Source: a virus
Taxonomy: Duplodnaviria > Caudoviricetes
Strand: one strand, 5' to 3'
Length of the DNA: 64,000 bases
Virus record (IMG/VR): IMGVR_UViG_3300006092_000137
Coordinates: 3,951-67,950 of that record
Shown here: one piece after another, positions 3,816-43,911 of the stretch
Layout of the letters: the number at the start of each line of letters is the position of its first letter
Position numbering within the stretch: position 1 is the first letter of the stretch
Notes under the pieces: model-generated
Database searches by the model: none
Seen by the model: only the letters and a program-made list of their open reading frames with translations
What the model was told of the DNA's origin: nothing
Position numbers and translations under genes: made by a program

Positions 3816-3816
3816 G

Positions 3817-8257: not shown

Positions 8258-8266
8258 AGGGTAGGC

Positions 8267-8656: not shown

Positions 8657-8658
8657 AA

Positions 8659-11125: not shown

Positions 11126-11134
11126 GGGTCATGT

Positions 11135-11748: not shown

Positions 11749-11827
11749 CAAAGAAAACGAAATAAACTAAGATTATTGGCGTACAGGGGGAAGGGTCCCC
11801 CGGTTTGTAAGAAAGGGCTGGTACGTC

Positions 11828-12442: not shown

Positions 12443-12528
12443 CGGGAGAACGCCACCATGCCAATGATGACCTGCATCATTCGTTTCACCGACATCTTCC
12501 GCGCGTTGTTTGGAAGGCTCTGAAGGCT

Positions 12529-13120: not shown

Positions 13121-13150
13121 TAGACACGTGTTTTGGGCCGGTGGTACAAC
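13121..13150 (+). promoter_or_regulatory. sigma70-like promoter, possibly leaderless
   Basis: TAGACA (13121-26) N18 TACAAC (13145-50); ATG is the 7th base after the hexamer. Confidence 0.45.
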
Positions 13151-13156
13151 ACGGCC

Positions 13157-15522: not shown

Positions 15523-16151
15523 ATCCACGCCTGAAAATGCTGCTCGCCTTCGTTGGCACTGCCACGGTTGGCGTTGGGAGCGCACTCGTGAGCGTGTACC
15601 TGCCAAAAGAAGACGTTACGCGAGCACAGCTCCTCGATGCTGGTATCACCGACGATTGCAATCAGATCGCCTTGTTCTGCGATGCGGAGATTGACGGCGA
15701 TGCGAGGCCGCAATGGCGCGATGCAGGGTTCTCCAAACGATTTGCTCGGCTTGGCATTCCCGGTTTCCGCTGCCCCGCCGCTGCAGAGGGCGGTGGTAAG
15801 CGAATCATCGAAGACGGCGGACTGATTCTTCCCCCCGGACTTCGCCAGTTGGTAAGGCGCGGGCTTCGAATTTACCTCGATGACTGCGAGTTTGGCCCCT
15901 GTGCGGATAACCGAGACGTCTGCGGAGCGGCGGTATTCGGCGACAACACTCCCTTCGTGGTGAAGCCCCCAACCCACGTGCACGCCCCAATGGATGGGGG
16001 CACTTCCTGCCAGCGGCGCGAGCGGCTCCCTGACGGCGGTACCCGGGTGCGGTATTTTGGTGCAGGCAACGTCTTCCCAGTGGGGGAGGCGGTCGGGTCG
16101 GGGTGCGTGCCGTCGATGAACGCTGCTGACAGCGACCACGACGACTTGTAA
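15519..16151 (+). CDS. membrane-anchored Cys-rich protein
   Basis: GTGA coupling; N-terminal hydrophobic segment; several DAG/DGG. Confidence 0.65.
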   Translation: MNPRLKMLLAFVGTATVGVGSALVSVYLPKEDVTRAQLLDAGITDDCNQIALFCDAEIDGDARPQWRDAGFSKRFARLGIPGFRCPAAAEGGGKRIIEDGGLILPPGLRQLVRRGLRIYLDDCEFGPCADNRDVCGAAVFGDNTPFVVKPPTHVHAPMDGGTSCQRRERLPDGGTRVRYFGAGNVFPVGEAVGSGCVPSMNAADSDHDDL

Positions 16152-16172
16152 CCCCTGCTTTTTCTGGTCCCT

Positions 16173-16198
16173 GGAAAATTGACACAGCCACGGGCAAG
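16173..16198 (+). promoter_or_regulatory. GGAAA-N14-GGGCAAG motif 7
   Basis: 10 nt before ATG 16209. Confidence 0.7.
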
Positions 16199-16208
16199 GT
16201 AAAGGGGT

Positions 16209-16418
16209 ATGCCTCCTTTCATTGCTTTTCTGCTGGGCGTCTCCCTGGGCATGTGGGGCACCTACTTTTGGATGAATGCAAACCGAAGACGCGCGGTACA
16301 GCGCTTCGGAATGATCCACGAGACGATGCACCAGCGCCACATGGAGCACTTGCTGAGTGTCTATCTTTCGACTGGAAAATGTTACCGAGAGGAGCATGTG
16401 CGTGAGTTCAAAAACTGA
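16209..16418 (+). CDS. small single-TM protein
   Basis: N-terminal hydrophobic helix; follows GGAAA-N14-GGGCAAG. Confidence 0.6.
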   Translation: MPPFIAFLLGVSLGMWGTYFWMNANRRRAVQRFGMIHETMHQRHMEHLLSVYLSTGKCYREEHVREFKN

Positions 16419-16434
16419 CCGCAATGCGCCTCAA

Positions 16435-16797
16435 ATGTATTTCCTCGACCGCGAGTACACCGACAAAAACGGGAACAAAATTTCTGGGCGTGAGATGGCA
16501 CTGCTCATGGAAGACATGGAGTACCGCCGTGTCGGTTACACAGAAACCTCGCAAGGCATCACGGTTTCAACGGTTTGGACACCAATCGACGGAGCGTTTG
16601 GATCTGGCCGAAATTTCGAAACAATGGTGAAGCGCAGCGGTGGTTCTTGGTGTGGCTGCTGGCCATACCAGACACAAGCTGAAGCAGAAGCTGGGCACCG
16701 AGAGTTGGTTGAAAGATTCAGTCGTCCTATCAAGGAAGCGGCGGACGCATTGTCTCGCCTGACCGGGGACGAAGAATGGGTGAATTTGTACACTTGA
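16435..16797 (+). CDS. conserved phage hypothetical protein with AAxRLxG tag
   Basis: VSTVW...FETMV motif common in phage hypotheticals; DALSRLTG; start uncertain. Confidence 0.6.
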   Translation: MYFLDREYTDKNGNKISGREMALLMEDMEYRRVGYTETSQGITVSTVWTPIDGAFGSGRNFETMVKRSGGSWCGCWPYQTQAEAEAGHRELVERFSRPIKEAADALSRLTGDEEWVNLYT

Positions 16798-16857
16798 TGC
16801 TGTGCTGGCTTTTGGTTTCGCTGGTGGTGGTGACGTTTTGGGTTTGGCGGAAGTGGC

Positions 16858-17394
16858 ATGATTGAGACGCATCTTCACTGGATGGCATACCCTGGCGATC
16901 GGTACTGGCGGTTGCACCAGGCACGTGTGAAGACAGCCCCGAAGCACCTCGAGGGGTGCCACAAAATTTCCTACGAGTACCTGGCGTTGCGGCATCTTGT
17001 GAAGGGTGGCTGGAAATGGACCATGGAAGTTATTGGACCGCATGGATCCACGCACGAGAAGGGCTTCATCCCAGAAGAGGTGGACCCGCGACCGCTCTGT
17101 GAAGAGCGCTTCCGTGTGTACCTTGCGGCCCGGGCGCTCGTTGGGGGCGGGCCTCTGCTGATGCCTCGAACTTTGGTTTTTGAGAAGCCCTGCGAGCTCT
17201 GCCCACCATCTGTGGTGGCTCGGATCAACAAGCACCACGACAAGTTGATGAACCAGCACATCATCGCTGACTACACCGACACTCTCGGGGAGTTGATGGC
17301 CTTCAACGATAATCTCTGTGGAAAACGAGGCCGTGACATTTTTCTTGGTCTTCAAAGGAAAATTTACAAGCGCTGGGGCAAGGTGCCTGCATGA
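16858..17394 (+). CDS. hypothetical protein
   Basis: 178-aa ORF in operon run. Confidence 0.55.
   Translation: MIETHLHWMAYPGDRYWRLHQARVKTAPKHLEGCHKISYEYLALRHLVKGGWKWTMEVIGPHGSTHEKGFIPEEVDPRPLCEERFRVYLAARALVGGGPLLMPRTLVFEKPCELCPPSVVARINKHHDKLMNQHIIADYTDTLGELMAFNDNLCGKRGRDIFLGLQRKIYKRWGKVPA
17357..17382 (+). promoter_or_regulatory. GGAAA-N14-GGGCAAG motif 8
   Basis: 8 nt before ATG 17391. Confidence 0.65.
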
Positions 17395-17606
17395 TCGTCA
17401 AGGTTCAGCTCTCTCAGGTAAGCCCAGGCAGTGCGGCGCGGCAGGCATTGGTGTACGACGAAGCACGTACCGTGAATTACATGGGACCTTGCCCTGAAGA
17501 TATTCTGCTGCGCATGGGCAATCGATCGAAGGCGTTTTTTCATGCCAAAATCGACGGCCAGAAGCGGCTCAGCTTAGGTGACACTGCTGGTTGGCAAGAG
17601 TGGTGA
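17391..17606 (+). CDS. hypothetical protein
   Basis: ATGA coupling; follows GGAAA-N14-GGGCAAG. Confidence 0.65.
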   Translation: MIVKVQLSQVSPGSAARQALVYDEARTVNYMGPCPEDILLRMGNRSKAFFHAKIDGQKRLSLGDTAGWQEW

Positions 17607-17980
17607 AGGTGGAGCTGCAGCACCTTACGCAGCTTGACCCATCGCTCAGCCCAGAATTTCAGCGCCGGCAAATCAAGAAGTTGGCGATCGGTTCGAAGTT
17701 GGACCTCAACGTTGAGCACCAGGTGTTGATTGAGCGCCTCAGCAATCGGAAGTGGGTGGTGCGTTTTCTCTACCCCAAGGGTGTAAGCCCGCGCGGGTTC
17801 GTCGTTCACTGGCCCTACGATTTCGTGCGCGGGCCTGGCGATATGGCTTGGGAGTCGTCTGTTGGCGGAGAGGCCCATTGGTTTGTGAAAATGGAAGACG
17901 CGGTGAAGGACGCTTTTGAGCGTGTGGTGCATTGGGATGCGGTGAAGCGCCTGCGCGGTGGAGCCTTCGGCGATGGGTAG
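17603..17980 (+). CDS. hypothetical protein with AAxRLxG tag
   Basis: DAVKRLRGG near C-terminus. Confidence 0.65.
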   Translation: MKVELQHLTQLDPSLSPEFQRRQIKKLAIGSKLDLNVEHQVLIERLSNRKWVVRFLYPKGVSPRGFVVHWPYDFVRGPGDMAWESSVGGEAHWFVKMEDAVKDAFERVVHWDAVKRLRGGAFGDG

Positions 17981-18524
17981 AGTCGAGCGTTGGAAGGCAG
18001 ACAAAGACCGAGCGCGAGACGAGCTTCACAAGCTTCGTTTGGAGGCTCGAGGCGAAGAATATTGGAAATCGAATCTCAGCGATCCTTTCGGATTCATGCG
18101 CCCGCTGCCTGAGCCCCACACTGCACGTGAGCGGTTCTTGTCGATATGTGCAGTGGGTGGGGTCTGGTGCTTCGAGGCAGAGTTGAGAGGCATGTATTTA
18201 GAGGCTCACCACGCAGCGCATACGTGGACGCTTTGGAGCAAGTGGCCATACATGGGGGAAGCGGAAAACCAGCACACGTACATGCTGCACCTGTGGATCC
18301 GTCCAGGCGGTACTGAAAGCACTCGGCAGCACACCAAACGAGGTTGTGAAGCGGAGCTCCATGATGGCTGGCAATCAAAGTGGATGCACAGGCAGCCACG
18401 GAAGCGCCAAGTAATTTTCAGGGGCAAAGTGAGCGCCTGCCTCGATGAAGCAAAGAAGATATTCATCTCGTGGGAGGCAGCCACCCGCCTTGGTGGTAAC
18501 CCTGAACCATTGGTGTACTTGTGA
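17973..18524 (+). CDS. hypothetical protein with AAxRLxG tag
   Basis: EAATRLGG near C-terminus. Confidence 0.65.
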   Translation: MGRVERWKADKDRARDELHKLRLEARGEEYWKSNLSDPFGFMRPLPEPHTARERFLSICAVGGVWCFEAELRGMYLEAHHAAHTWTLWSKWPYMGEAENQHTYMLHLWIRPGGTESTRQHTKRGCEAELHDGWQSKWMHRQPRKRQVIFRGKVSACLDEAKKIFISWEAATRLGGNPEPLVYL

Positions 18525-18904
18525 CTCGTGGCGACATTGAAGCAGCAGTGCGGCGGTGGGCGGAAGCACAGCTCGAATCGGCGGTGGACATCGAGATTCA
18601 AGAAGCAGTGAATTTTCAGAACCTGCCGAAACTGGTTAAACGGAACACACTGGTTTTCTTGGAGAAGGAAACCCTGCGCACTCGGCAGGAGGCCTACGCT
18701 TTTTTGATCTTCTACGCCCGGGCACCCAACGCGCCAAAGACAGACCTGAGTTCGCAGATGCAGGCAGAGCTTTTCCAAATTCATCCTGGTGTCTGGCAGG
18801 TGATCGGTACAGGTGAGCAGTACACCGATGCTGATAAAATGCTGTTGGAGCTTGCGGAGAAAGCTCTGGCACGGGATTCAGCACACCGCCTGGTGGGTGT
18901 GTAA
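18521..18904 (+). CDS. hypothetical protein with AAxRLxG tag
   Basis: ends DSAHRLVGV. Confidence 0.65.
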   Translation: MTRGDIEAAVRRWAEAQLESAVDIEIQEAVNFQNLPKLVKRNTLVFLEKETLRTRQEAYAFLIFYARAPNAPKTDLSSQMQAELFQIHPGVWQVIGTGEQYTDADKMLLELAEKALARDSAHRLVGV

Positions 18905-19237
18905 ATGGTTGCGTTGTTGAAAATGCGCGTTGGGGACTCGCAGTCCCTTGATGGGGTGTTCAGCCTCCAGCGCTATTCTCACATGTCATTTCGCTTTTTT
19001 CGTTCTGGCTTTTTCAGTTCGCCTGTCGTGAGCATCGTGAAAATGCCAGACGGCTGGTCCTACAAAAGCGGAAGAAGTCGTAGGCAATTTACAAAAGGGT
19101 GGTCGCTGGTTGATCAGGGATGTGTGGTTGACCACTCACTTCCATTTCGAGCGGCTCTTAAAAGAGCAGAGGAAATTATTCTGTCGAAGGATGCTGCGAA
19201 GCGGCTGGGGAGCTCAGGTGGGTACCCGGGAAGTTGA
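18905..19237 (+). CDS. hypothetical protein with AAxRL tag
   Basis: DAAKRLGSSG. Confidence 0.55.
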   Translation: MVALLKMRVGDSQSLDGVFSLQRYSHMSFRFFRSGFFSSPVVSIVKMPDGWSYKSGRSRRQFTKGWSLVDQGCVVDHSLPFRAALKRAEEIILSKDAAKRLGSSGGYPGS

Positions 19238-19547
19238 ACGCACCCAGTTCTCTCAGCAAGACATCGACGAAATCGTCGCAGAGTGCGGCGGTTCCGACAA
19301 AGACGCTGTACAAGCGTATGTCCGTGATGGGGGTTTGCTGCTCACGAATCATCAGCGCTCGACCAAGGTGGCTTGGATCACCAAGGTGAGCGAGCTCGGG
19401 GTGGGGTTCATCCTGCAATGGCGCGGGGTAACCACCGACAAGCCGATTGGAACACAGCAGTGGTATGCATCAGCCAAAGCAGCTGCGCAGGCCGCAGTGG
19501 CTGAATTCAGAATTCAAGAGGCGCAATGGAGACTGGGCGCATGGTGA
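19218..19547 (+). CDS. hypothetical protein with AAxRL tag
   Basis: GGGAG RBS, GTG start; ends EAQWRLGAW. Confidence 0.6.
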   Translation: MGTREVERTQFSQQDIDEIVAECGGSDKDAVQAYVRDGGLLLTNHQRSTKVAWITKVSELGVGFILQWRGVTTDKPIGTQQWYASAKAAAQAAVAEFRIQEAQWRLGAW

Positions 19548-19876
19548 GGGTACCAAAGACGTTGAAAGCGCCTGAGCACCTCACTTCCGTGCGCTTGCTT
19601 TTATCTTCGGACAAGACCGGTGCGCTGTATCGAACCTATTGTGGGCGTACCATGGTGCTGGACCATGAGGGGTTGGTGGGCCACGCTCTGGCAGACTGCC
19701 CTGAATGCTTGGCAATTGATGCCTCGATTCGTCTCACTGGAGACATTCCGGTTCGATGCACTGAGTGCAAAGGCGTTGGGCATGTTGCGCGCACAGATTC
19801 TGCGGCCACAGGGTGCCCGACCTGCGGGAACAGCGGACTGCTGTGGATGAAAATTAAAGCGGGGCCTGGTGCTTAG
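19541..19876 (+). CDS. zinc-finger protein with internal AAxRLxG tag
   Basis: CPEC, CTEC, CPTC; DASIRLTG. Confidence 0.6.
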   Translation: MVRVPKTLKAPEHLTSVRLLLSSDKTGALYRTYCGRTMVLDHEGLVGHALADCPECLAIDASIRLTGDIPVRCTECKGVGHVARTDSAATGCPTCGNSGLLWMKIKAGPGA

Positions 19877-19925
19877 TCCCACAGTACTGTAGAAACCTTG
19901 TGTCAAGAATCCAGAAGGGGAAAAC

Positions 19926-20336
19926 ATGGAAGAAAAAGAGTTGAAGGTTGCGTTGGAGCATGACCAGGCGCGCAAGACGGTAGAACCACTGTACCCAGCG
20001 CACGGTACTAGCCCTTTTCAGCACACTGCGTCGGTGCACCGCCCACAGCTGGAGCTCGACACATTGATGCTGCCAGCAGGTATCAAGCAGGCGATGTTCA
20101 TTCCCATCTTCAACGGAATCGAAACCATCTACGAGTGCCAGCTCTACCTGAACGGCGAAGCCATCGTGAAGGGCATTGGCGGAACCAAGGGTGAAGCCAT
20201 GGAAAACGCGCGCATCGCGCTCTCAACGCAGGCAGCGCTTTCATCGCAACCAGGGGAGAAGTATGAAGCCGAGGGTGGACGTTCTGCCGAAGGTGCCGCA
20301 GCTGCTGCCGAAGAGCTTTCGCAAAACGGCGCATGA
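19926..20336 (+). CDS. hypothetical protein
   Basis: AAGGGG RBS after intergenic gap. Confidence 0.6.
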   Translation: MEEKELKVALEHDQARKTVEPLYPAHGTSPFQHTASVHRPQLELDTLMLPAGIKQAMFIPIFNGIETIYECQLYLNGEAIVKGIGGTKGEAMENARIALSTQAALSSQPGEKYEAEGGRSAEGAAAAAEELSQNGA

Positions 20337-20450
20337 CAGTACGCCAATGCTGGCTGCCGGGCGCACCGAAGAGCCAGCACACCTCTGCCGACGTTGCGGT
20401 GTCGTCGTAACAGCGGAAACCACTGAAGCCTGTACCGAGGGGAACCCGGG

Positions 20451-21110
20451 ATGGACACCAAGACGGAATTGAGCTGGGGGTTTCGTGCGTTCCGCTGGTG
20501 GAGCGGGCTGCTCGTTTGGTTGTACTTCAGCCTGCGCGGCTACCAGGCGAAGTCGTGGCTGTACCGGTACGTCTTCGAGTGGAAGTATCTCAAGCTCCCG
20601 ATCTGCACAGTGCCGTCGATCGACCTGATACCTGCCATCATCGACTACGGGAAGCAGTGGCGCAGCGACAGCTGGCTGCAAGGTTTCGACGCAGTGAGCT
20701 CGCCGCAGTACGCGCAAGAGGTGTTTCTCAACCGGGCGCCAGTACCTGAGCACGGGCTGGACTGCGACGAGCACGCCATTTTCATCACCGCGCTGATTGA
20801 GAATTCCCTGCGCGAGGGCACGTGCGATGACGGGTACTACAGCCCGAAGTTCTTCACCGTCATTTGGATCGATCCCGAGACGCTCAGCATTTCAGGGCAC
20901 AATGTCTGTTTGCTGACGGTGCCGCAGGGCCCGGGGAAGTTCGACCTGTACAGCTACATGGACTACGGCCTTCCAAACACCCCTGTGAATTCGATTCATG
21001 AAGTAGCGCTGCAGGTCATTGAAGAGCGCGCGAAGGGTTCGCTGCCTCTGGTGTGGATGGTGCAGAACACTGCGCTGACACCTGAAATCGTTCAGAGAGG
21101 GGCACCATGA
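20451..21110 (+). CDS. transglutaminase-like (Cys-His-Asp) putative cysteine protease
   Basis: GLDCDEHAIF, GHNVCL, YMDYG in catalytic-triad order. Confidence 0.55.
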   Translation: MDTKTELSWGFRAFRWWSGLLVWLYFSLRGYQAKSWLYRYVFEWKYLKLPICTVPSIDLIPAIIDYGKQWRSDSWLQGFDAVSSPQYAQEVFLNRAPVPEHGLDCDEHAIFITALIENSLREGTCDDGYYSPKFFTVIWIDPETLSISGHNVCLLTVPQGPGKFDLYSYMDYGLPNTPVNSIHEVALQVIEERAKGSLPLVWMVQNTALTPEIVQRGAP

Positions 21111-21319
21111 AGAACGGCATTTACCGTCACTACAAGGGCGACCTGTACATGGTCTTGGGTGTGGGGCGGCAGTCCACCAATGGGCCAACAGAAGGCGAAA
21201 AAGTGGTGATCTACTTCTCCATCAAACGGCAGCAGTTTTGCGTGCGAGAGATCGGGCAGTTTCGCGAAAAGGTGAAGTGGCCTGACGGAAAGATGCGTCC
21301 TCGTTTCAAGGCGGTCTAA
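21107..21319 (+). CDS. DUF1653 domain protein
   Basis: GIYRHYKGDLYMVLGVG...VVIY...VRE..QF...RF. Confidence 0.85.
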   Translation: MKNGIYRHYKGDLYMVLGVGRQSTNGPTEGEKVVIYFSIKRQQFCVREIGQFREKVKWPDGKMRPRFKAV

Positions 21320-21321
21320 AA

Positions 21322-21927
21322 ATGAACAGCTACCCGTACACCCCGTGGTTCATCGGTGGGCTTGGTGTCGCCATTCTCGTTGCATTCGGCGTGATGGCGT
21401 ACATGACTTGGCGTCGTACCTACGTGCCCTGGAAGCCCCTGCCCAACTATTACCCGGGTGCCAAGTGGCACAGCTTGGTGCAGACGGACCCCAAGTACAT
21501 CGCCATGGCGCTTGCTGCAGCGGAGAGCGCCTTGATTCAGCACACCAAGTGGACCGCTGCGAATATGGCTTTGGTCGGGCATTACGTCCACGTCTACGTG
21601 ATGGACTCCGAATCGTGGGTTGACTTATGGGGGCGCAAGGTGGCCGGTTACCAAGACGGGCACAAGCTGGTGGTTGGGCCCTCGCTCGCGGCGCTCGCGC
21701 ACGAACTCGCTCACCTTGCTGAGCTGGTGCTCGACGGAGTGGTGGACCAGAACCACATGTCTTGGCCCGCAGACGGCATCGCCAATGCACTTGAAGATTA
21801 CGATCAGTGGTTGGCCAAGCAGGCGAGCGCGGATCGCATTCTGGCTGCGAACGGAGCTATCGTACCTTTCGTTGCACCAAAGGTTCTCACAGGGATGTCC
21901 GCTTGTCGTTATCGGAGACCTGAGTGA
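21322..21927 (+). CDS. membrane-anchored HExxH putative zinc metallopeptidase
   Basis: N-terminal TM helix; LAHELAHL; downstream H. Confidence 0.6.
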   Translation: MNSYPYTPWFIGGLGVAILVAFGVMAYMTWRRTYVPWKPLPNYYPGAKWHSLVQTDPKYIAMALAAAESALIQHTKWTAANMALVGHYVHVYVMDSESWVDLWGRKVAGYQDGHKLVVGPSLAALAHELAHLAELVLDGVVDQNHMSWPADGIANALEDYDQWLAKQASADRILAANGAIVPFVAPKVLTGMSACRYRRPE

Positions 21928-22106
21928 AGAAAGATGATGAAGCAGTTGCGCGGTTACAGGGCAGCACTCAATGCCCAGTGTGCCTGCGCACGAAGGTTAA
22001 GCTTCACACGGGGCCTAAGAACACACTTTTGATCGCTATCCACGCTCCCGCCCCGTACCTCCGTTCGGTTTGTTTGGGTTCAGGGAAAGAGGTTGGCAAA
22101 AAATGA
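21924..22106 (+). CDS. small zinc-finger protein with N-terminal AAxRLxG tag
   Basis: DEAVARLQGS then CPVC...H...CLGSG. Confidence 0.55.
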   Translation: MKKDDEAVARLQGSTQCPVCLRTKVKLHTGPKNTLLIAIHAPAPYLRSVCLGSGKEVGKK

Positions 22107-22393
22107 CCTGGAAGCAATTGGTGGGCAAGGCTGCAAACGGAATGCTTCTTCCTCCTTTTTGGAAGCGCCGCACGGTGCCTCAGAAGGAGCTCGAAAGGGC
22201 GCTGAAGGTCGCTTTCACCGCAATCGCCGAAGAAGCACTTCATGGGCGTAAGGTTGTCATTCCAGGTTTCGGCGTGTTCTCGCTGCGCACCCGCGTCGCC
22301 CGCAGGGTCCGCAACCCAGTCACCAAAGAGATGATGCAAATCCCTGCCGATCGTCGCATCGGCTTTCGCTGTTCCAAACTCATTGTGAGGTAA
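22103..22393 (+). CDS. HU/IHF family DNA-binding protein
   Basis: VVIPGFGVFSLRTRVARRVRNPVTKEMMQIPADRRIGF. Confidence 0.9.
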   Translation: MTWKQLVGKAANGMLLPPFWKRRTVPQKELERALKVAFTAIAEEALHGRKVVIPGFGVFSLRTRVARRVRNPVTKEMMQIPADRRIGFRCSKLIVR

Positions 22394-22395
22394 AA

Positions 22396-22965
22396 ATGAT
22401 TCGTGAAATTGTGATCTGGCCGGACCCGGTGTTGAAACGGAAGTGCGAACCCGTCACCAGGTTCGATGACGAGCTGAAACGGTTACTCAACGACATGATG
22501 GAAACGATGTTGGCTGCTCGTGGAGCAGGACTCGCAGCGTCGCAGGTTGGGTACGCGTTGCGCGCCATCACGGTGTTGGTGCGGACCCCAGAGAACAAAG
22601 AGAACCCGGTGATGGTGCTGAAGCTGGTGAACCCGGAAATCGTCGAGCGCAAGGGGCGTCAGCAGATGCGTGAGGGGTGCCTTTCGCTGCCCGGGTATTT
22701 CGACATGGTGACACGCTCGACTTGGGTGCGCGTGGTGGCTCAAGACGAAAACGGCGAGAAGGTTGAAATCTCGGGTGACGGAGCCCTTGCGCAGGCGCTG
22801 CAGCACGAAATTGAGCACCTGGACGGCATGGTCTTCGTGGACCACCTTTCAATCATCAAGCGCAACACGGCAGCGATTCGCTTCAAGAAGGCAAAGGCCA
22901 AGGGAATGCGCTACGTTTCTGATAGACCAGCGCCCCAGGACTTTACCGAGCGCACCGCCAACTGA
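22396..22965 (+). CDS. def: peptide deformylase
   Basis: all three motifs: GAGLAASQVG, EGCLSLPG, QHEIEHLDG. Confidence 0.95.
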   Translation: MIREIVIWPDPVLKRKCEPVTRFDDELKRLLNDMMETMLAARGAGLAASQVGYALRAITVLVRTPENKENPVMVLKLVNPEIVERKGRQQMREGCLSLPGYFDMVTRSTWVRVVAQDENGEKVEISGDGALAQALQHEIEHLDGMVFVDHLSIIKRNTAAIRFKKAKAKGMRYVSDRPAPQDFTERTAN

Positions 22966-22976: not shown

Positions 22977-24863
22977 ATGCCGAGCGCATTGCCGTCGAAC
23001 CCCGGGCTTCTTGGCCGTATGGCGAGCGTGCTCGGAGGCAAGCTGGGCAGCAAAGACAACCCCCAAAACGCCCAAGACCGCGTGCGCCGCTTGGGGCTCT
23101 CAAAGCGCCAGCAGGAGCTCAACCGTCTCTGGGCGGTGTACCGGGGGCAGCAATACGCCCACTGCAAGCTGGACTGGAACGGGCGCGAGAACATCGACGA
23201 CCTGTCGGGGGAAATCATTTCCACGCAGGGGTATGTGCCCCCCGGCTTCATGGACATGGGGCGGGGTGCGGGCAACCTGCCGTTGAAGTTTCGACGCCCG
23301 ACTTCTCCCTACGCGCTGATTCGCGTGGTGGTGGACCGCTTCACGGGCTTGCTGTTCAGCGAGCAGCAGCATCCTGAAATCAAAGTTGATGGGGACCCAA
23401 AAACGCAGGAGTGGCTGCGCGCGGTCGCAAGCACGTCGCGGCTTTGGCAGCATATGATCCAGGCCCGCAATTACGGGGGCTCGATGGGCACCGCGTGCAT
23501 TGGGTTCCAATTCGTCAACGGCAAACCCACCATCGAAGTGCATGACCCAAAGTGGGTTACGCCTGAGTTCAGGAAGCACGGCTCGCTCACGTTGGTGAAG
23601 CTCGAAAAGCGGTACATCTTCGAGAAGGAAGTACGCGACGAGACGACAGGGCGTTGGGAGAACAAGTCATTCTGGTACCGCCGCATCATCGACGAGCAGA
23701 GCGATGTGCTCTTCCAACCAGCGGAAGTCGGCAACGGTGACGAGCCAGACTGGCAAGAAGCCGAACGCGTGGACCACAACTTCGGCTTTTGCCCTGCTGT
23801 TTGGGTGCAGAATCTGCCGGTGCAAGACAGCGAAGACGGGGACCCCGATTGCCCGTCCCCTGTTTATGACAATGCCTGGAACATCGACGCGTTGATCTCA
23901 CAAGCCAACCGCGCCATTTTGGCCAACTGCGATCCGCAGCTCGTCATCACCACGAAGGCGGAGATGGCTGAAGTGCAGATGGCGCTCGACAAGGCCCTGC
24001 GCGTTCCTGAGGGTGACGCCAAGTTTTTGGAGGTGCAGGCGACCGGCCCAAAAGCCGCGCTGGAGCTCTCTGACCAGCTTCGCCGTAATTCGCTGGAGGT
24101 GTCCCACTGCGTACTGGAGCACCCTGATGTGGCAGGCAAAACTGCCACAGAGGTGGAGCGCATGTACCAGGCGATGTTCAACAAGTGTGACATTTTGCGT
24201 GAGCAGTATGGGCAGAAGGGCATTTTGCCCCTGTTGGAGATGTTCCATCGCGCAGCGGTCGCCTTAAACAAGCCCCGCCCGGCTCACCAAGACGCGGCGA
24301 CGCGGCTCCAAGGAACCTTCGAACAACCGCCCCAGGCGCCCCCAGGAACGCAGAACGAGGGGCAGCCTGGGGGTGAGGCTCCCCCCGCCCAGAACGCAGC
24401 TCCTACAGCCCCTCAGGCAGGCGCTGTAACCGACGAGAATGACGGGATGATTATGCCCCAGGGGGCTCTTTTGGTGCGGAGTTCTGTTGTTCTTCCGCCG
24501 ACTTACCAGCTCAACCCCCAGACGGGGCAGATGGAGGAGATTCAACGGGAGCTTGGGTTTGGCGGCACCATCACCTTGGTGTGGCCGGAATTCGTGCGCC
24601 CCACCCTCGACGACCTGACGAAGGCTGTAACCGCGACCACTGGGGCGTTGTCGGCGAACTTGATCGACGACGAGACAGCGGTGGGCTTCGTTGCGCCGTA
24701 CTTCAAGGTCGAAGACAAGAGCGACCTGTTAAACAAGATTCGAAACAACGCTGCTCAGCAGCAGGCGGACATGATGTCGATGTTCGCTTCTTCAAACCAA
24801 CCAAAGCCAAGTGACGTGACGGCTCCTCCTGGACCGATCATTCCGCCTGCTCCAACGGAATAG
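22977..24863 (+). CDS. portal protein with low-complexity insertion
   Basis: size, position before head morphogenesis gene, HNFGFCPAVWVQN motif typical of SPP1-like portals. Confidence 0.8.
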   Translation: MPSALPSNPGLLGRMASVLGGKLGSKDNPQNAQDRVRRLGLSKRQQELNRLWAVYRGQQYAHCKLDWNGRENIDDLSGEIISTQGYVPPGFMDMGRGAGNLPLKFRRPTSPYALIRVVVDRFTGLLFSEQQHPEIKVDGDPKTQEWLRAVASTSRLWQHMIQARNYGGSMGTACIGFQFVNGKPTIEVHDPKWVTPEFRKHGSLTLVKLEKRYIFEKEVRDETTGRWENKSFWYRRIIDEQSDVLFQPAEVGNGDEPDWQEAERVDHNFGFCPAVWVQNLPVQDSEDGDPDCPSPVYDNAWNIDALISQANRAILANCDPQLVITTKAEMAEVQMALDKALRVPEGDAKFLEVQATGPKAALELSDQLRRNSLEVSHCVLEHPDVAGKTATEVERMYQAMFNKCDILREQYGQKGILPLLEMFHRAAVALNKPRPAHQDAATRLQGTFEQPPQAPPGTQNEGQPGGEAPPAQNAAPTAPQAGAVTDENDGMIMPQGALLVRSSVVLPPTYQLNPQTGQMEEIQRELGFGGTITLVWPEFVRPTLDDLTKAVTATTGALSANLIDDETAVGFVAPYFKVEDKSDLLNKIRNNAAQQQADMMSMFASSNQPKPSDVTAPPGPIIPPAPTE

Positions 24864-32573: not shown

Positions 32574-33017
32574 ATGACGACCAGCGTTGTGCAGACCCTG
32601 AAGGAAGTTTTGACCAAGGCCGACCCTGATCAGATCGCCGATGCGCTCCGCAAGGTGGATCTGGGCAACCTCCTCCAGGTGAAGGAGCACGACACCGGCA
32701 CCATCACCGCTGCGGCAGCCGTCGCTGTTCCCGGCGATGCTCTCGCGGTGCTCTCGGCGCACGTCATCACCTCGGGCACGGCGGCTTCCGTGGGCCACTA
32801 CATGGTGGGCAACAGCGCCTCGACCCCGCTGCTTCCGCCCGGTGGTGCGAACACCGCCATCGGCATCGCTTCGTGCCAGGGCATCACTGCCCCTGGTGCA
32901 GGCCTCACTGGTTCGGGTCGCATCACCACGGTGACGTTCCCCAACACGGTGACCCGTGTGGTGTTCCGCTACATCTCGGCACCTTCGACCGCGCTGACCG
33001 CCAAGTTCGCGACCTAA
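32574..33017 (+). CDS. putative head decoration/auxiliary capsid protein
   Basis: AGGAG RBS, strong codon bias, Ala/Thr/Gly-rich, before scaffold. Confidence 0.55.
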   Translation: MTTSVVQTLKEVLTKADPDQIADALRKVDLGNLLQVKEHDTGTITAAAAVAVPGDALAVLSAHVITSGTAASVGHYMVGNSASTPLLPPGGANTAIGIASCQGITAPGAGLTGSGRITTVTFPNTVTRVVFRYISAPSTALTAKFAT

Positions 33018-33184
33018 TCCCTCGAGGGGCTGGACGCGCAACGCACGGCCTTGGCCCCTTTTGGAGATGGAAGTGAAAGGGGAGACCGGAAACGGCTCCC
33101 CTAAGCTGTACCACCCGTACCAGCAATCGATCGCTGGGAATTGCAAGGCTGACCTTCGGCACCTCACCACGCAGACGACAGGCG

Positions 33185-34108
33185 GTGAACGAGTCGGAGA
33201 CAGTAATCGAGGAAGAAGCGATGCCAGATAATATTGACCCGAACGTTACAGCTTCCGCCGTCACTTCAACTGACGGTGGACCACCGCTTGGTGCTGGCGG
33301 TGGCGCTCCTCCGATGGATACAGGGGACGAAGCAGCAGTACCGTCGCCCGCAGCGGCACGACCGGAATCCAAAGTGGTTACCGTTCCGACCTCTGCGATG
33401 CGTCGCATCAAGGAAGAAGAGTACGCACGTGGGAAGCAGTCAGCCCTGGACGAGTTGTCCTCGGGCGCGGGCTTCAAAAGCTCTGCTGACTTCATCGCCG
33501 CGCTGCAAAAGCTCAATGCTCCAGCTCAGGCCCCAACGCCTGCGCCGCAACGAGCTCAACCGCAGCAAGCTCCACAAGGGGCTGAAGATGAAACGGATCC
33601 TGCTTCTCAGCTGATGAACGACAAGGCTGAGCGACGCGAAGCAGGGAAGTACCAACGTCAGCTGGAGAAGACGCTGAACGAGCGCAACCGGTACGCTGCG
33701 CAAGCTCAGCAGTGGCAAGTCCGAGCCAAAGAGGCTCAGGCTGAAGCAGATGCAGTTCGCGCTGAGATGCACCTGCGCACCATCGCCGCGAGCGTTGGCG
33801 TGCAGGACATCGACTACGCGATCACGTTGTTCAGTCGTGAGGTCGAGCGTTTGACACCAGAAGAGGCGAACACGTTCGATGAGCGGGTGTACTTCGAAGG
33901 GCTCCGAAAAACGAAGCCCATGCTGTTCGGAGAGACGGTCGTACCTGCTACCACCGGCACTGGAACAGGAGGCGCGCCGACGCCCCCCAAGCCAGGGCAT
34001 GTGGCCGCGACCAACGGAGCGAACGGTAAGTTCGATGGCCGTAAGGCAACGCCACAGCAGCTCGCAGAAGAGCTGAAACGGCGAGGAATCACCTCCTACG
34101 GGGCGTAG
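33185..34108 (+). CDS. capsid scaffolding protein
   Basis: acidic/Pro N-terminus, coiled coil, immediately before MCP. Confidence 0.75.
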   Translation: MNESETVIEEEAMPDNIDPNVTASAVTSTDGGPPLGAGGGAPPMDTGDEAAVPSPAAARPESKVVTVPTSAMRRIKEEEYARGKQSALDELSSGAGFKSSADFIAALQKLNAPAQAPTPAPQRAQPQQAPQGAEDETDPASQLMNDKAERREAGKYQRQLEKTLNERNRYAAQAQQWQVRAKEAQAEADAVRAEMHLRTIAASVGVQDIDYAITLFSREVERLTPEEANTFDERVYFEGLRKTKPMLFGETVVPATTGTGTGGAPTPPKPGHVAATNGANGKFDGRKATPQQLAEELKRRGITSYGA

Positions 34109-34118
34109 TTTCCCGTGT

Positions 34119-34233
34119 GGGTTGAACAAGGAGCGCTTCCTCGCTTGTAGGATTTGACGTAGTGTTCGGCACAGAGATGTCTGTACGCAGTGTGTTCAAA
34201 CCGAGCAGTCAACCCCATAAGTGAGGAAGCACA
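34119..34233 (+). promoter_or_regulatory. structured MCP leader sequestering the Shine-Dalgarno
   Basis: GCTTCCTCGCTTGT (34135-48) pairs with ATAAGTGAGGAAGC (34217-30), 14 bp with two GU; nested inner helices. Confidence 0.6.
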
Positions 34234-35637
34234 ATGCCTGATTTCAGCGTAATCGCCCAGGCGCCCGAAATTCGGGCTCTGGTTCAAGACGGTATCTTGG
34301 AGCGCGCGTTCCACGATTCTCTCTTTCCCAAGCTGCTGTTCCGCAGCGAAGCCACTCCGGTCCTCTGGCCCGGAAATGTCGGCGACCGGATGATCTTCAC
34401 CGGCACCGGTCTGTTGGCGAAGAACCAGCGCCCGTTGACCCCTGGTGTGGACCCGACGCCGAAGGCGTTCGCAGCTGAGCAGTGGGAAGCCACCGCACAG
34501 CAATACGCTGACACCATCGACACGCACATGCCCACCAGCATGAACGCGATCGCCAACCTGTTCTACCGGAACGCTCAACAGCTCGGTCTGCAGGCTGGTC
34601 AGTCGATGAACGGCTTGGTGCGCAACAAGATGTACAATGCAGCCCTCTCGGGCTGGACCGTGTGCGACGGTGCTCAAGTGGCCGTCAACACCGTTCGCGT
34701 GAAGCGCCTCAACGGCTTCACCCGCGCGCGCCGCCCGGATCTTGCTGCCGGTTCGCCGGTTCGCTACGACCCCGTGTCGGCATCGAACCCGCTGCCCATC
34801 AAGATCTTCGCGGGCTCGGAGCTGAGCCGCAACGTCATCGGCTTCACCGCCGACAACGCTGGCGATGAAGTGGGCCCGGGCACCATCCTGCTCGACGGCG
34901 CGGCGGTGACCGTGACCGACCGTGACTACGTCTTCTCGACGACCGCGACCAAGATCGTGCGCGTCGGTGGCGGCAACAAGGTGGATGACGTCGGCAGCTC
35001 CGACGTGCTGAAGCTCTCGGACCTGCGGTCGGCGATCGCTCGTCTGCGTCAGCAGAACGTCCCCGAGCACCAAGACGGGTACTTCCACTGCCACTTGGAC
35101 CCGATCTCGGAAGGCCAGATCTTCGCGGACCAAGAGTTCCAACGGCTCCTGCAGTCGTTGCCGGACTACTACATGTACAAGCAGTTCGGTGTTGGCGTGC
35201 TCTTGGGCACGATCTTCATCCGCAACAACGAGTGCCCCCTCCCGGACACCGTGGTCGGCGGTTTGACCGCGACTTGGTCGCTCGACGACCCGTTCGCGGG
35301 CGAGCTGTACAACAACGGCAACGCGAGCACGGGCGTCAAGATTCACCGCCCCTTGCTCTCGGGCCAAGGTCTGGTGATGGAGTACTACCAGGACCTGGCG
35401 AACCTGCTCACCGAGGCAGGCGTCACCGGGCGCACCGCCGAGCCGCGCATCACCAACAACGGCATCGACGTGTTCACCGAGCGCATCCAGATGATCATCC
35501 GCGCCCCGATGAACCGCCTGCAGGACATGGTGGCCACCACCTGGAAGTTCATCGGCGACTGGCCGGTGCGCACGGACGGCGCGGTGGGTGACTCGGCTTA
35601 CTTCAAGCGCGTCATCGCCATCGAGCACGGCGAGTAA
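34234..35637 (+). CDS. major capsid protein
   Basis: 467 aa, extreme codon bias, follows scaffold, followed by hairpin; fold not verified. Confidence 0.85.
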   Translation: MPDFSVIAQAPEIRALVQDGILERAFHDSLFPKLLFRSEATPVLWPGNVGDRMIFTGTGLLAKNQRPLTPGVDPTPKAFAAEQWEATAQQYADTIDTHMPTSMNAIANLFYRNAQQLGLQAGQSMNGLVRNKMYNAALSGWTVCDGAQVAVNTVRVKRLNGFTRARRPDLAAGSPVRYDPVSASNPLPIKIFAGSELSRNVIGFTADNAGDEVGPGTILLDGAAVTVTDRDYVFSTTATKIVRVGGGNKVDDVGSSDVLKLSDLRSAIARLRQQNVPEHQDGYFHCHLDPISEGQIFADQEFQRLLQSLPDYYMYKQFGVGVLLGTIFIRNNECPLPDTVVGGLTATWSLDDPFAGELYNNGNASTGVKIHRPLLSGQGLVMEYYQDLANLLTEAGVTGRTAEPRITNNGIDVFTERIQMIIRAPMNRLQDMVATTWKFIGDWPVRTDGAVGDSAYFKRVIAIEHGE

Positions 35638-35660
35638 TCGCCTCCGCAGTTCAACTCTCG

Positions 35661-35701
35661 ACGGGGCCGGGCTGCTGACGGCCCGACCCCGTTGTCGTTT
35701 T
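35661..35701 (+). terminator. hairpin/terminator after MCP
   Basis: ACGGGGCCGGGC/GCCCGACCCCGT (11 of 12 bp) then TGTCGTTTT. Confidence 0.55.
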
Positions 35702-36106: not shown

Positions 36107-36652
36107 TTGAAGAAAGCCTGCCGACGATGCAATGCGGTCAAACCGGTGGAGGAATTCCACCGGCATGCCCATGGTGCGTTCGGCAGGGATTCAATTTGTA
36201 AGTCCTGCAGCAAGCTCAAGACTTACGAATGGCGGAAGGCCAACCCGGGCGGACACGCGAAGATTCAGGCGAAGTACGTAAAGAAGCACCCAGGGCGGAA
36301 AACCGCAACGCACAAAAAGTGGCGTGAAAAAAACGGTCTAGAGTACGAACGTGCGCGATATTCGCGTCGTCGAAGTAACCCGGAGCAACTTGCGGTTTAT
36401 CGGTCTGGGCAGCAAGCTGCGAGGAATCGCCGACGAGCAGCAGGGCCGCTCTCAGCGGCAACCGTGCGCGACGTGTTGAAGGACCCTTGCGCGTACTGTG
36501 GGTCGAAGGCGACGAGCGTTGATCACATTCTCCCCGTTTCACGTGGTGGCACAAATGCTAGAGAAAACCTTGCCCCCGCGTGCGCTGATTGTAATCGGCG
36601 CAAACACGCCAAAACGCCTTCAGAATGGAAGGAGATGCAAGCGTGCCCTTGA
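36107..36652 (+). CDS. HNH endonuclease with N-terminal Zn finger (likely homing endonuclease)
   Basis: CAYCG...VDHILPVSRGGTNARENLAPACADCNRRK; CRRC...CKSC. Confidence 0.92.
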   Translation: MKKACRRCNAVKPVEEFHRHAHGAFGRDSICKSCSKLKTYEWRKANPGGHAKIQAKYVKKHPGRKTATHKKWREKNGLEYERARYSRRRSNPEQLAVYRSGQQAARNRRRAAGPLSAATVRDVLKDPCAYCGSKATSVDHILPVSRGGTNARENLAPACADCNRRKHAKTPSEWKEMQACP

Positions 36653-38846: not shown

Positions 38847-40847
38847 ATGGCAGGTTTCATTCGGCGGTTTGGCAGCTTCCCTGGCAGTGAGACGATCACC
38901 CAAATCGAAGGTGTCATCATCGTCGATTCACCACCGCCTGGTGCAGTCGCGGGGGTGGCTACGGGTGTGGTTGCCATCGTCGGAGAATTTGCCGACATGG
39001 GTTACGCCACACAGGTGGATTCGGCTGGTGTCGTGACCACCAAGTGTGCCCCCGTCGAGATCATGAGTGGGCAGGACCTCATCGACAAAGTCGGTGGTTG
39101 GGACGTTTCCATTGGCCAGCACGGCAACAACGGTGGCAACGGTTTCGTCGGCTTGCGCAACAAGAAGTTCAGCCGCTTGATCGTCGCTCCGGTGAATTTG
39201 GCTTCCGGTGCTGCCGGACGCTTGTGGCGTGACCTGCCCACCAACCTTTCATCGACCCAAGCTGTTCCGGCAGTGCCGCTGCTCGGCGGGCGCGTTGAGG
39301 CGGGCCGAGAATTCAAGAGCTCGACCAACCGCGTGCACATGGGTAAGAAGGTTCAGTTCACGGCTCTCGGGCACTTCAAGAATGGCACTGACGGCTCTGT
39401 GACCTCGACAGGTGCCGCTGCGACGCAGACGTTGAACAGCGCTTCTGGAAGCTTCCTCACCGCGCTCAACGGAGGCCCTGTCAAAAAGGGCTGCATCGTT
39501 GTCGTGGGCGTCATTTCGGGCGCTGGCGCACTCGGGGCGAATGCTCTTCAACTGCGCGTTGTTTCTGATGCGGCTTCAGCCACGGCGCTCGTGCTGCAAA
39601 AAATGGACGGTTCGAACTTCGACTGGACCACGGGTTCGTCGCTCCCGTACCGCATCCACCCGCCCACCGATGCTGACTCGGCGGGCGACGGTGGCGTGTA
39701 CGCAGCGCTGGCGGACACCACGGGCTACAAGATCCCCTGCCGCCCGTTGGACGCCACGATTGCAGCGGCGACCAGCTGCACCCCGACCGAAGTGCCTCCC
39801 GCTGGCACCGCCAGCACCTGGGACTCGCTCTCTGGGTTGACGCTGCGCAGTCACCAGTCTTCGGGCTTCGTGTTCGACACGAACGTGCAGGCCCCCAACG
39901 CGGCCAACCACGCCAGCATCGACGCCCTGTACGTGACGGCCATCGATGCGTTGGCGCAAGACCTGGCGCCCGCTCGCGAGGTAAACATCCTCTTCAGCGC
40001 GCGCACCAGCACCGCGATTCGGGCCAAGCTCAAGAGCCACGTGCTGGACGTTTCGGCAGTCGGCGTCGGGCGTATGGCCTGCATCAGCCCGAACCTGCAG
40101 ACGGTCACCACCGCTGCGGCCACCACTGACGCAGACCCGGGTGTCGGCGCAAACCGCCAGGAGCGTGTCGTGTACTGCTGGCCGGGCGTGCAGACCTTCG
40201 TGCAGGAGGCTGCCAACGTCACCGTTGGCACCGCTGACGGCTTGTCGGTGACCACCGGCATCATGGACACCCCCGGCGACGGCTGGATGGCTGCCGTGAT
40301 GAGCAACCTGGCGCCCGAGAGGAACCCGGGCCAGGCAGCTGCGCCAGTGCCGCAGATCTTGTCCCCCGTGTTGAACCTTCAGCGCGGCTTGGGAAACCTC
40401 CAAGTGGGCGACTACATCAACCTGCGCGCGGCTGGTGTGGCAGCCTTCCGCATCGACCGTGCAGATGGTCCGGTGTTCCAGTCTGGCATCACCACGTCGC
40501 TCACCAGCGGGCAGAAGAACATCAACCGACGCCGCATGGCAGACTTCATCCAGGACAGCATTGCTGCTCGCTTGAGCCAGCTCAGCAAGCTCCCGCTGAC
40601 CCAGGACCTGAAAGACGCTGCCACGGGCGAGGTAGATGCCTTCCTGAACGGGCTGCTGTCACCGCAGAACCCTGCGGCTCAACGCATCAGTGCCTACAGC
40701 GTGGACGACAAGTCGGGCAATACCCCCGCGCTCGAAGCAGCGGGCGTCTTCGTCATCATCTCGAAGGTGCGCACGTTGGCCACCGCAGACTTCTTGGTGC
40801 TCCAAACCGAGATCGGCGAGGGCGTGGTCACCACGACCACCACCTAA
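38847..40847 (+). CDS. tail sheath protein
   Basis: 666 aa; INRRRMADFIQDSI, sheath-type C-terminus; precedes tube. Confidence 0.9.
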   Translation: MAGFIRRFGSFPGSETITQIEGVIIVDSPPPGAVAGVATGVVAIVGEFADMGYATQVDSAGVVTTKCAPVEIMSGQDLIDKVGGWDVSIGQHGNNGGNGFVGLRNKKFSRLIVAPVNLASGAAGRLWRDLPTNLSSTQAVPAVPLLGGRVEAGREFKSSTNRVHMGKKVQFTALGHFKNGTDGSVTSTGAAATQTLNSASGSFLTALNGGPVKKGCIVVVGVISGAGALGANALQLRVVSDAASATALVLQKMDGSNFDWTTGSSLPYRIHPPTDADSAGDGGVYAALADTTGYKIPCRPLDATIAAATSCTPTEVPPAGTASTWDSLSGLTLRSHQSSGFVFDTNVQAPNAANHASIDALYVTAIDALAQDLAPAREVNILFSARTSTAIRAKLKSHVLDVSAVGVGRMACISPNLQTVTTAAATTDADPGVGANRQERVVYCWPGVQTFVQEAANVTVGTADGLSVTTGIMDTPGDGWMAAVMSNLAPERNPGQAAAPVPQILSPVLNLQRGLGNLQVGDYINLRAAGVAAFRIDRADGPVFQSGITTSLTSGQKNINRRRMADFIQDSIAARLSQLSKLPLTQDLKDAATGEVDAFLNGLLSPQNPAAQRISAYSVDDKSGNTPALEAAGVFVIISKVRTLATADFLVLQTEIGEGVVTTTTT

Positions 40848-40931
40848 GTCAGTTGACGGCTGCCGAGCTTTTCGGCAGCATGTGGTGAGCAATACCGGCT
40901 TCGCCACCGAGCAGCCCGGTCGGTGGAATAG

Positions 40932-40967
40932 GGCACGGCTCCTACCTTTCGTAGGACCGTGCCTTTT
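40932..40967 (+). terminator. terminator-like hairpin between sheath and tube
   Basis: GGCACGG-C-TCCTAC/GTAGGA-CCGTGCC then TTTT. Confidence 0.55.
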
Positions 40968-41017
40968 GCCGTTTCTGGGTGCTGGGCGACCCGCTCGTCG
41001 TAGGAGGAAGCACTCAA

Positions 41018-42069: not shown

Positions 42070-43911
42070 ATGGGCGTGTCCATGGAGCAGCTTGTTGAGA
42101 CACAGCTGAAGGTCATCGACGCAGCGACGGGGCCTCTCACCAAAATCGGTAAGGCAGCGGAGAAGACGAGCGGCTTGTTTGAGAAGCTGGAGGGGGGCTT
42201 ACATGCCCTCCTCCCCGTTGCTGGTTCTCTCGGTGCTGCCTTCGGGATGCACCAGTTGATCTCGAACACCGAGGAATACCTGAAGCGTATCAAAGAAGTG
42301 AAGGACCTCACGGGCGCTACTGCCGGTGAGACGGACCTGCTTTTTTCCAGCGCGCGCAAAGCGGGCGTCGGGTACGACGAGATGCAGCGGGTGATGTTTC
42401 AGCTCTCCCGACGCGGTTCGATGCTGGAACAGACGATGGCCGCTTCAGCGGGCAAGGTGCCCGGTATGGCGGACAAGTTCAAGCGCCTGGGCGTGACAAT
42501 GGACAAGGGCCCGGTGAAGGCAATCACCACCATGTCCAAGGCGGTGAAGAACGGGAAGCTCGACGCTGGCGAGCTCATGTCGCAATTTCGAATCCCGCCC
42601 GGGCAGGTCAACGACTTCAAAGAGTTCCTCGAAAACCTGGACGAGAAAAAGATCGCTGCTGCTGCGAAAGGTGGTGTCGGGTTGGTGTCAGACGACGACA
42701 TCGATTCCTTCGACCGCATGGAAAAAGCGCAGCATCGAATGAGCGACGCCTGGACGCGCATGCAGGTGATGGTCGGTCGGCGGCTCATCCCAGTGATGGC
42801 AGACCTTGTGGAAAAGGTCGCCGACAAGCTGGAAAACGAGTGGCTCCCTGCTGCGGTGCGCTTCGGAGAGTTCCTCGGGAAGCACATGACCGAGATTGTC
42901 GGATTGGCGAAGACCTTCGTCGCGGTGATGACTGCAAAGAAGCTGCTCAACGTCTTGGAGAGCGTCACGAGTCCTGCCGGGCTCATCGGCAAGCTGGCTG
43001 CTGGAGGTATTGGGGGCGGTGCCAGCGGTGCGCTCGGTGGCATCGGGGCTATGGTGGGTCAAGTCGGCACCATTGTCTCCGGCTTCATGGCTGCCATTCC
43101 TGCGCTGTTGGGGATCGGTGCTGCTGTCGGCGTGATCTACCTTGGGTATCAGCGCATTCAGGCGAACGTGGATGGCATCAAAGATCGCCTGTTAAATCTG
43201 TGGGATTCGATTCGAGCTCGCTTTGAGCTCCTCGGGGAAACTGTCACAGGGATCTGGAATTCTATCTCTGGGATCTTCGGCGAAGGGGGCACCTTCACCG
43301 AGTTCATCGGAAAGCTCGCGGGTATTGGTTTCGAGTACCTCGTTACGGCTGCCGACCACTTCGTGCACGCCATTCAGACGGCGGTGAGCTTCTTCACCGA
43401 GCTCGGCGAGAACTTCAACTGGCTGATGAAAGACGTGTTTGGGGAGAATTGGTTGCATGAGCTCATCGTGGACCCGTTCCTTTCCTCGATGAAGGTAGTG
43501 GGTTCAGCGATCAGTACCATCATCGATTTCGTCATCGACAAGGCCAACATGCTGGGGAAGTACATCGGCGTCGAAATCAAGAAGGAAAACAGCATGCTGA
43601 ACCTGCTGGAAGCTCCTTTCAAGATGATCTCCCGGCACTGGGACAAGACCCAAAAAGCCACCGAAGGGCGTGCGGCGCAACTCAAGGCCGAGCGCATGGC
43701 GGAGTCCACGCAGACGCACCGTCGCGACGCTCCAGAGAAGCGCCCGCCCCCCAACCAGTACGACTTTCGAGGCAGTCGCTTCGACATCACCCAGAAGTTC
43801 GCCGAGGGTTTCGACCCCGACCGCATCGCAGTGGCCTTCGCCAACGACCTCGCTTCCCTTGGCGAGATGAAGTCTCAGTCTGGGTTCGCCCCCGTCTTCG
43901 GAGCTCGGTAA
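42070..43911 (+). CDS. tape measure protein
   Basis: helical, Ala/Gly-rich hydrophobic segments, after chaperones. Confidence 0.85.
   Translation: MGVSMEQLVETQLKVIDAATGPLTKIGKAAEKTSGLFEKLEGGLHALLPVAGSLGAAFGMHQLISNTEEYLKRIKEVKDLTGATAGETDLLFSSARKAGVGYDEMQRVMFQLSRRGSMLEQTMAASAGKVPGMADKFKRLGVTMDKGPVKAITTMSKAVKNGKLDAGELMSQFRIPPGQVNDFKEFLENLDEKKIAAAAKGGVGLVSDDDIDSFDRMEKAQHRMSDAWTRMQVMVGRRLIPVMADLVEKVADKLENEWLPAAVRFGEFLGKHMTEIVGLAKTFVAVMTAKKLLNVLESVTSPAGLIGKLAAGGIGGGASGALGGIGAMVGQVGTIVSGFMAAIPALLGIGAAVGVIYLGYQRIQANVDGIKDRLLNLWDSIRARFELLGETVTGIWNSISGIFGEGGTFTEFIGKLAGIGFEYLVTAADHFVHAIQTAVSFFTELGENFNWLMKDVFGENWLHELIVDPFLSSMKVVGSAISTIIDFVIDKANMLGKYIGVEIKKENSMLNLLEAPFKMISRHWDKTQKATEGRAAQLKAERMAESTQTHRRDAPEKRPPPNQYDFRGSRFDITQKFAEGFDPDRIAVAFANDLASLGEMKSQSGFAPVFGAR

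Follow-up and report, generated by a model that had tools for sequence, protein, structure and literature searches.

Why would a phage shut the ribosome-binding site of its major capsid protein (MCP) gene? The MCP is normally the most strongly translated protein of a phage, so a covarying helix that closes its ribosome site is unexpected. The helix described here lies in a virus record from IMG/VR of 67,950 bp, which is linear and about 77% complete, and of which we analyzed a stretch of 64 kb (the window). Nearly all genes in the window are on the + strand, and the gene content is that of a contractile-tailed phage. We identified genes for the terminase large subunit (1739-3283), the portal (22977-24863), a head scaffolding protein, the MCP, the tail sheath (38847-40847) and the tape measure (42070-43911), and baseplate and fibre genes are also present. 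The scaffold gene (33185-34108, + strand; a weak match to PF06810, phrog_2303) ends in a TAG stop codon at 34106-34108, and an alternative start with a Shine-Dalgarno (SD) sequence is possible at 33221. In 74 related loci, tblastn placed scaffold homologues directly 5′ of the MCP gene. The MCP gene (34234-35637, + strand; phrog_1357) begins with the residues MPDFS, an N-terminus that aligned in more than 40 relatives. The protein is 26-33% identical to capsid proteins annotated in seven deposited phage records (Streptomyces phage Kromp, and Ralstonia and Komagataeibacter phages), with Kromp the closest at 33%. A BLASTN search of the region against deposited phages found no match at the DNA level, and a search against genome contigs gave a single weak match and thus no clue to the host. 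DNA of this record was found in activated-sludge sequencing runs. Four runs labelled metatranscriptomic exist as contigs and are probably DNA; their contigs span the gap between the scaffold and MCP genes but gave no usable ends.

The surrounding modules have several features of their own. An HNH endonuclease gene (36107-36652; PF01844; phrog_1035, endonuclease VII-like) is located inside the head module, two genes 3′ of the MCP gene. A phage-encoded peptide deformylase (22396-22965; PF01327, E = 1.8e−47) adjoins the portal gene on its upstream side. Between the terminase and the deformylase and portal genes lie about 19 kb (3284-22395) of mostly small open reading frames (ORFs) with no family match, among them a 678-aa ORF (13486-15522) with a Laminin_G_3 domain. 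It is unusual for the packaging and head module to be split by such a stretch.

The gap between the scaffold stop at 34108 and the MCP start at 34234 is 125 nt long, and it is the site of the helix. The 5′ arm (34135-34148, + strand) is an anti-SD strand, GCUUCCUCGCUUGU, that begins 26 nt past the scaffold stop. The 3′ arm (34217-34230, + strand), AUAAGUGAGGAAGC, contains the SD sequence GAGGAAG (34223-34229), 4 nt ahead of the ATG at 34234. The two arms form 14 bp, 12 of them Watson-Crick and two G-U, and GAGGAAG is covered. An SD of the GAGGAAGC type is common to the MCP gene, the terminase gene (1739) and an ORF at 41018 (putative tail tube). The minimum free energy (MFE) of 34130-34236 is −44.4 kcal/mol (z = −5.2), and none of 200 shuffles was as good. 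RNAfold places the helix in both the MFE and the centroid structure, with a predicted pair probability of at least 0.99 from 20 to 80 °C, and the predicted unpaired probability of the MCP SD is 0.00. Opening the region from −17 to +5 of the MCP start has a predicted cost of 19.6-20.8 kcal/mol. This is the second highest value among 54 putative gene starts in the window (median 10.3, sd 3.8). By these folding estimates, a cost near 20 kcal/mol would all but abolish initiation on any RNA that carries both arms. A first reading of the window, made from its letters without database searches (the sequence-only reading), had described this 14-bp helix as burying GAGGAAG, and it is indeed present and dominant in our predictions.

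Selection on the helix was assessed in relatives gathered with the MCP as the query (42 loci of IMG/VR and 49 of metagenomes), whose scaffold stops were fixed by tblastn; L001, L019 and L024 were placed in this way. The ten closest relatives have 77-85% MCP identity, and their gaps are about 55-58% identical. An uninterrupted anti-SD:SD helix of 9-14 bp is found in all ten, with the anti-SD arm 12-40 nt past the scaffold stop. We had considered L001 to be without a 5′ arm and rejected this, since the scaffold stop given by tblastn restores the arm and L001 joins the helix-bearing set. In the half of the helix distant from the SD core the sequence varies by lineage and pairing is kept. Variant pairs include CGCUUGU/AUAAGUG, CGUGU/ACACG, CGCGAGU/ACUCGCG, UGUUGUU/AACAACA and CGGA/UCCG, and changes on both strands occur at seven helix positions in the close relatives. 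In a MAFFT alignment, six pairs are changed on both sides and 85.8% of cells are paired, vs. 76.8 ± 1.8% in shuffles (0/500 as high); paired cells fall to 43-57% when the partner is slid. From the MAFFT alignments, RNAalifold recovers nothing beyond the core SD helix. Covariation in related phages, proposed by the sequence-only reading as a check on its structure, was thus found, with changes on both strands at six to seven positions. Together with the opening cost of about 20 kcal/mol, it supports that reading's proposal of a gate on the capsid ribosome-binding site.

The pairing extends well beyond the close relatives. An upstream partner for the SD region that beats 95% of shuffles is present in 20 of 47 distinct loci, where about two would be expected. 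When 46 of these 47 loci were split at a gap length of 85 nt, the lock was found in 17/25 gaps of 85 nt or more vs. 2/21 shorter gaps, and relatives with short gaps have open ribosome sites. In every case the anti-SD partner is located 70-120 nt 5′ of the ATG, so that a promoter and a leader can fit in between. Several locked lineages (L041, L021, L022, L024 and L006) have arm sequences unlike those of the window. In this uncultured phage family the anti-SD:SD helix is a real element that covaries and had not been annotated before. In one sub-lineage (L001:2890-2995, and also L002, L049 and L050) a G+C-rich hairpin is located directly 5′ of the anti-SD. Its 5′ G-run can pair with the anti-SD (CUUCC) or with a CCCC beside the start codon, and in the MFE structure of L001 the G-run is on the anti-SD and the SD is partly open. 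This may be a three-way competition.

Only the anti-SD:SD helix is both beyond chance and under selection. The sequence-only reading had drawn a long rod inside it, and all three of the nested helices (TTGAC/GTCAA, TGTTCGG/CCGAGCA and ACAGA/TCTGT) are in the MFE structure of the window. The last of these is a small hairpin, ACAGA-GAUG-UCUGU (34171-34184, + strand). The interior between the arms does not, however, exceed dinucleotide shuffles in structure (z = −1.18 in the window, with a mean of +0.41 in nine close relatives), and RNAalifold gave no consensus inner structure on the MAFFT alignments of relatives. In most other locked lineages the interior z is −1.3 to +0.7. The interior of L031 reaches −2.4; it is 29 nt long, too short for a promoter. 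The same reading had proposed a competing strand that disrupts the rod. The pairings exist, 34119-28 with 34193-202 (9 of 10) and 34119-25 with 34209-15, but if forced they cost +14 to +22 kcal/mol and the 5′ flank on which they depend is neither conserved nor alignable among relatives. A 15-codon ORF between the arms (34177-34224, ATG to TGA), whose stop lies within the SD arm, was considered as an opener and rejected; it is not preceded by an SD, and relatives do not conserve it.

These results bear on the suggestion that the gate is a riboswitch or an RNA thermometer, for which a sequestered SD and some alternative pairings in the window could be cited. An Rfam scan of 33000-35500 at E-values up to 10 gave no match in the gap. 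There is no inner fold that is conserved or covaries, no alternative is close in energy to the helix, and predictions keep the helix paired at temperatures up to 80 °C. Thus, there is little support for a ligand-sensing fold, for a balanced two-state switch or for a thermometer, and we regard this class of explanation as extremely improbable.

Conservation inside the loop is of sequence, not of structure, as would be expected of a DNA signal. In alignments of ten relatives the only invariant interior columns are G-TAnnnT followed by TCGGC, which in the window read G-TAGTGT-TCGGC (34159-34170, + strand). TAGTGT (34160-34165) fits the minimal −10 pattern TAnnnT. The T, the A and the sixth-position T are fixed and the middle three positions are free, and the pattern is kept despite length changes of 3-6 nt up to TCGGC. 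TTCCTC (34137-34142), within the 5′ arm, occupies the −35 position, with 17 nt between it and the candidate −10. The block at 34159-34170 therefore looks like the −10 element, with discriminator, of a candidate nested promoter, a function suggested by its sequence pattern. TAnnnT carries little information (0.18 expected per interior), and that it is invariant in sequences that are related suggests, but does not prove, such a function. TTCCTC-N17-TAGTGT matches only 5/12 positions of the sigma-70 consensus, so an activator or another sigma factor would be needed. A sigma factor domain search of the incomplete record (about 77%) found nothing, and no sigma-70 promoter of at least 10/12 is present in the 64-kb window. 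The interior motif (as CTTCC-N16-18-CGTA, TTCCT-N15-17-ACGTA, GTAnnnTTCGG or GACGTAnnnT) is not enriched in the window and is unique to the gap. A degenerate pattern scan of viral contigs was flooded with chance matches and recovered only the L001 record. An RNA started near 34172 in the window would have a predicted opening cost of 6.3 vs. 19.6 kcal/mol, with the SD about 0.6 unpaired.

Better matches to the sigma-70 consensus occur between the arms in other lineages. We required a −35 element of at least 4/6, a spacer of 16-18 nt, TAnnnT, and at least 9/12 overall. Such sites are present in 5/25 long gaps, from three lineages, against 0.15 expected, and in 0/21 short gaps and 0/25 coding controls. 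They are TTGACA-N18-TAACTT in L021, TTGACA-N18-TAACCT in L024, and TTGATA-N17-TACATT in L011, L014 and L018. In each of them the end of the −10 element is 42-46 nt from the ATG. L006 has TTCCCA-N16-CATAAT (9/12), found in a looser scan only. In L021, L024 and L006 the end of the anti-SD arm is just 5′ of the −35 element, and RNAs from the predicted starts of these three have opening costs of 3-10 vs. 18-24 kcal/mol. The L014 group is weakly locked, and its anti-SD arm overlaps the −35 element.

A strong terminator-like, G+C-rich hairpin with a U-run (35659-35701, + strand) immediately follows the MCP stop codon, and the MCP gene could thus form a short transcription unit of its own. The region 34109-34233 yielded no terminator call. 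Downstream of the scaffold gene of L046 and L047 is a terminator-like hairpin, and its U-rich tail overlaps the anti-SD, an arrangement that fits a boundary of a terminator followed by a promoter. In L046 (1052-1091) this U-rich tail, CTTCCTTGTTGTT, is the anti-SD strand itself. Another strong terminator-like hairpin with a U-run (40930-40975) follows the tail sheath gene of the window, and the ORF at 41018 (putative tail tube) has the ribosome site GGAGGAAGCAC, the same as that of the MCP gene. The window also contains a second SD-hiding hairpin, in which ACUUCCCCC (779-787) pairs with GGGGGGAGU (815-823) and hides the SD of an ORF (829-1794) that reaches just into the beginning of the terminase large subunit gene. 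The 27-nt loop of this hairpin holds TACAAT (793-798), one of 17 hexamers with at least 5/6 of the −10 consensus on the + strand of the 64 kb (0.007 expected in this loop). In the L041 record the hairpin upstream of the homologue of this ORF is different and shorter.

The best reading of these data, with in our judgment about an even chance of being right, is a translational lock specific to one transcript and bypassed by a nested promoter. An RNA that reads through from the scaffold gene would carry both arms, 34135-48 would pair with 34217-30, and with the SD so paired the capsid gene would go untranslated from that RNA. A promoter between the arms (candidate −10 TAGTGT, 34160-65) would start a second RNA near 34170-34174. 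This RNA would lack the 5′ arm, have an open ribosome site and be translated, and it would end at the hairpin after the capsid gene. The small hairpin at 34171-34184, the sequence of which is not conserved in relatives, would form its 5′ end. Capsid protein would then be made only when the nested promoter fires. We infer the activity of the TAnnnT block of the window as a promoter, the existence of the read-through RNA, and the timing. The sequence-only reading had held that an MCP transcript starting downstream of 34148 would refute its proposal. Judged from the comparison with relatives, such a start would most likely be the bypass of the gate, and the structure would keep its relevance. The selected helix, its link to long gaps, the sequence-conserved interior, the promoter-like sites, the second hairpin, the terminator-like hairpin after the MCP gene and the precedent in T4 all argue for the nested promoter. 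Against it, the reason for withholding capsid protein from the read-through RNA is not obvious. On balance we would place our confidence in the nested promoter midway between doubt and acceptance.

Several rival explanations were weighed. RNase III or another double-strand-specific nuclease could cut the helix or rod in a polycistronic RNA, parting the scaffold and capsid messages and freeing the SD. The element does sit between cistrons with different dosage needs, the 14-bp helix of the window stacks on further helices to give about 28 interrupted pairs, and the near-perfect duplex of L041 is about 18-20 bp long. RNase III sites are about two turns of near-continuous double-stranded RNA. Outside the 9-14 bp helix the interior of the relatives is not structured beyond shuffles, so most members of the family are without the near-continuous duplex of about 20 bp typical of such sites. 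Processing would also account neither for the G-TAnnnT-TCGGC block nor for the sigma-70-like sites found between the arms, and we consider it unlikely. The block would have a role if a trans-acting protein or small RNA, from phage or host, bound the loop motif G-UAnnnU-UCGGC and melted or displaced the anti-SD helix. If translation uses the long RNA, so stable a lock must be actively released, and the conserved block does lie within an otherwise variable and unstructured loop. However, TAnnnT with its three free middle positions fits a −10 element better than an RNA-binding site, and we identified no candidate factor. A search of the 77%-complete record for a Com-type zinc ribbon was negative but is uninformative, since control genomes also gave nothing. 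This opener, too, is an unlikely explanation. It is quite unlikely that a trans factor opening the polycistronic RNA constitutes a new, family-wide system of translational activation that times capsid synthesis in uncultured myoviruses.

The helix could instead be a constitutive damper or an RNA stability element, not a switch, whose effect is simply to reduce translation of the capsid gene or to shield the RNA. In favour of this, the structure is thermodynamically one-sided. Against it, an opening cost of about 20 kcal/mol would all but stop production of the most abundant virion protein, and the relatives with short gaps have open sites; we think such a damper very unlikely. Translational coupling, in which ribosomes ending the scaffold gene unwind the structure and capsid protein is made in step with scaffold, is a shade more improbable still. 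In several relatives, sequences beginning 0-5 nt after the scaffold stop do form helices with the region of the MCP start. Pairing between the stop-proximal flank and the start region is not better than shuffles in 8/9 relatives, however, and the anti-SD arm, at 26 nt past the stop in the window and 12-40 nt in close relatives, is beyond the reach of a terminating ribosome.

The helix shows that the time of capsid synthesis, or the RNA from which it proceeds, is under control in this phage family. If the nested promoter is real, it would hint at an ordered supply, with portal and scaffold made before the coat protein. An arrangement of anti-SD, promoter and SD would then also be a signature that helps annotators to find late promoters in metagenomic phages.

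Several phage systems resemble this locus in part. The mom gene of phage Mu is a late gene with its SD and start codon locked in a stem, and Com opens it. The locus described here is like com-mom in that an SD is locked in a stem and release is needed. Unlike com-mom, the conserved block is inside the loop and not 5′ of the stem, and no Com-like protein was found. The R-sites of T7 and the lambda N leader are RNase III processing sites. What they share with our locus is a structure between cistrons that can be removed to free a ribosome site, and they differ in that most members of this family have only a selected helix of 9-14 bp round an unstructured loop.

The closest comparison is with phage T4. 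In the T4 genes e (lysozyme), soc, 49 and I-TevI, hairpins sequester the ribosome-binding site, and late promoters are located within or adjoining the 5′ arm; the ribosome site is folded away in the long early transcripts, whereas transcripts from the late promoters are translated (PMC3014915; McPheeters et al., 1986, as cited there). As at these genes, an upstream strand sequesters the SD and start in the longer RNA, here in silico. The proposed promoter would likewise make an RNA without the 5′ strand, with a match of only 5/12 in the window and sites of 9/12 in relatives. The T4 examples are lysis, decoration and nuclease genes with compact hairpins, whereas here the gene is that of the major capsid protein and the loop is 50-78 nt. 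The T4 late promoter is TATAAATA, whereas the promoter here would be sigma-70-like or of some other type. The mechanism is likely of a known kind, at a new gene and in a new lineage. If the nested promoter is correct, the trick of the T4 lysozyme gene would extend to a head-assembly gene in an unrelated, uncultured lineage.
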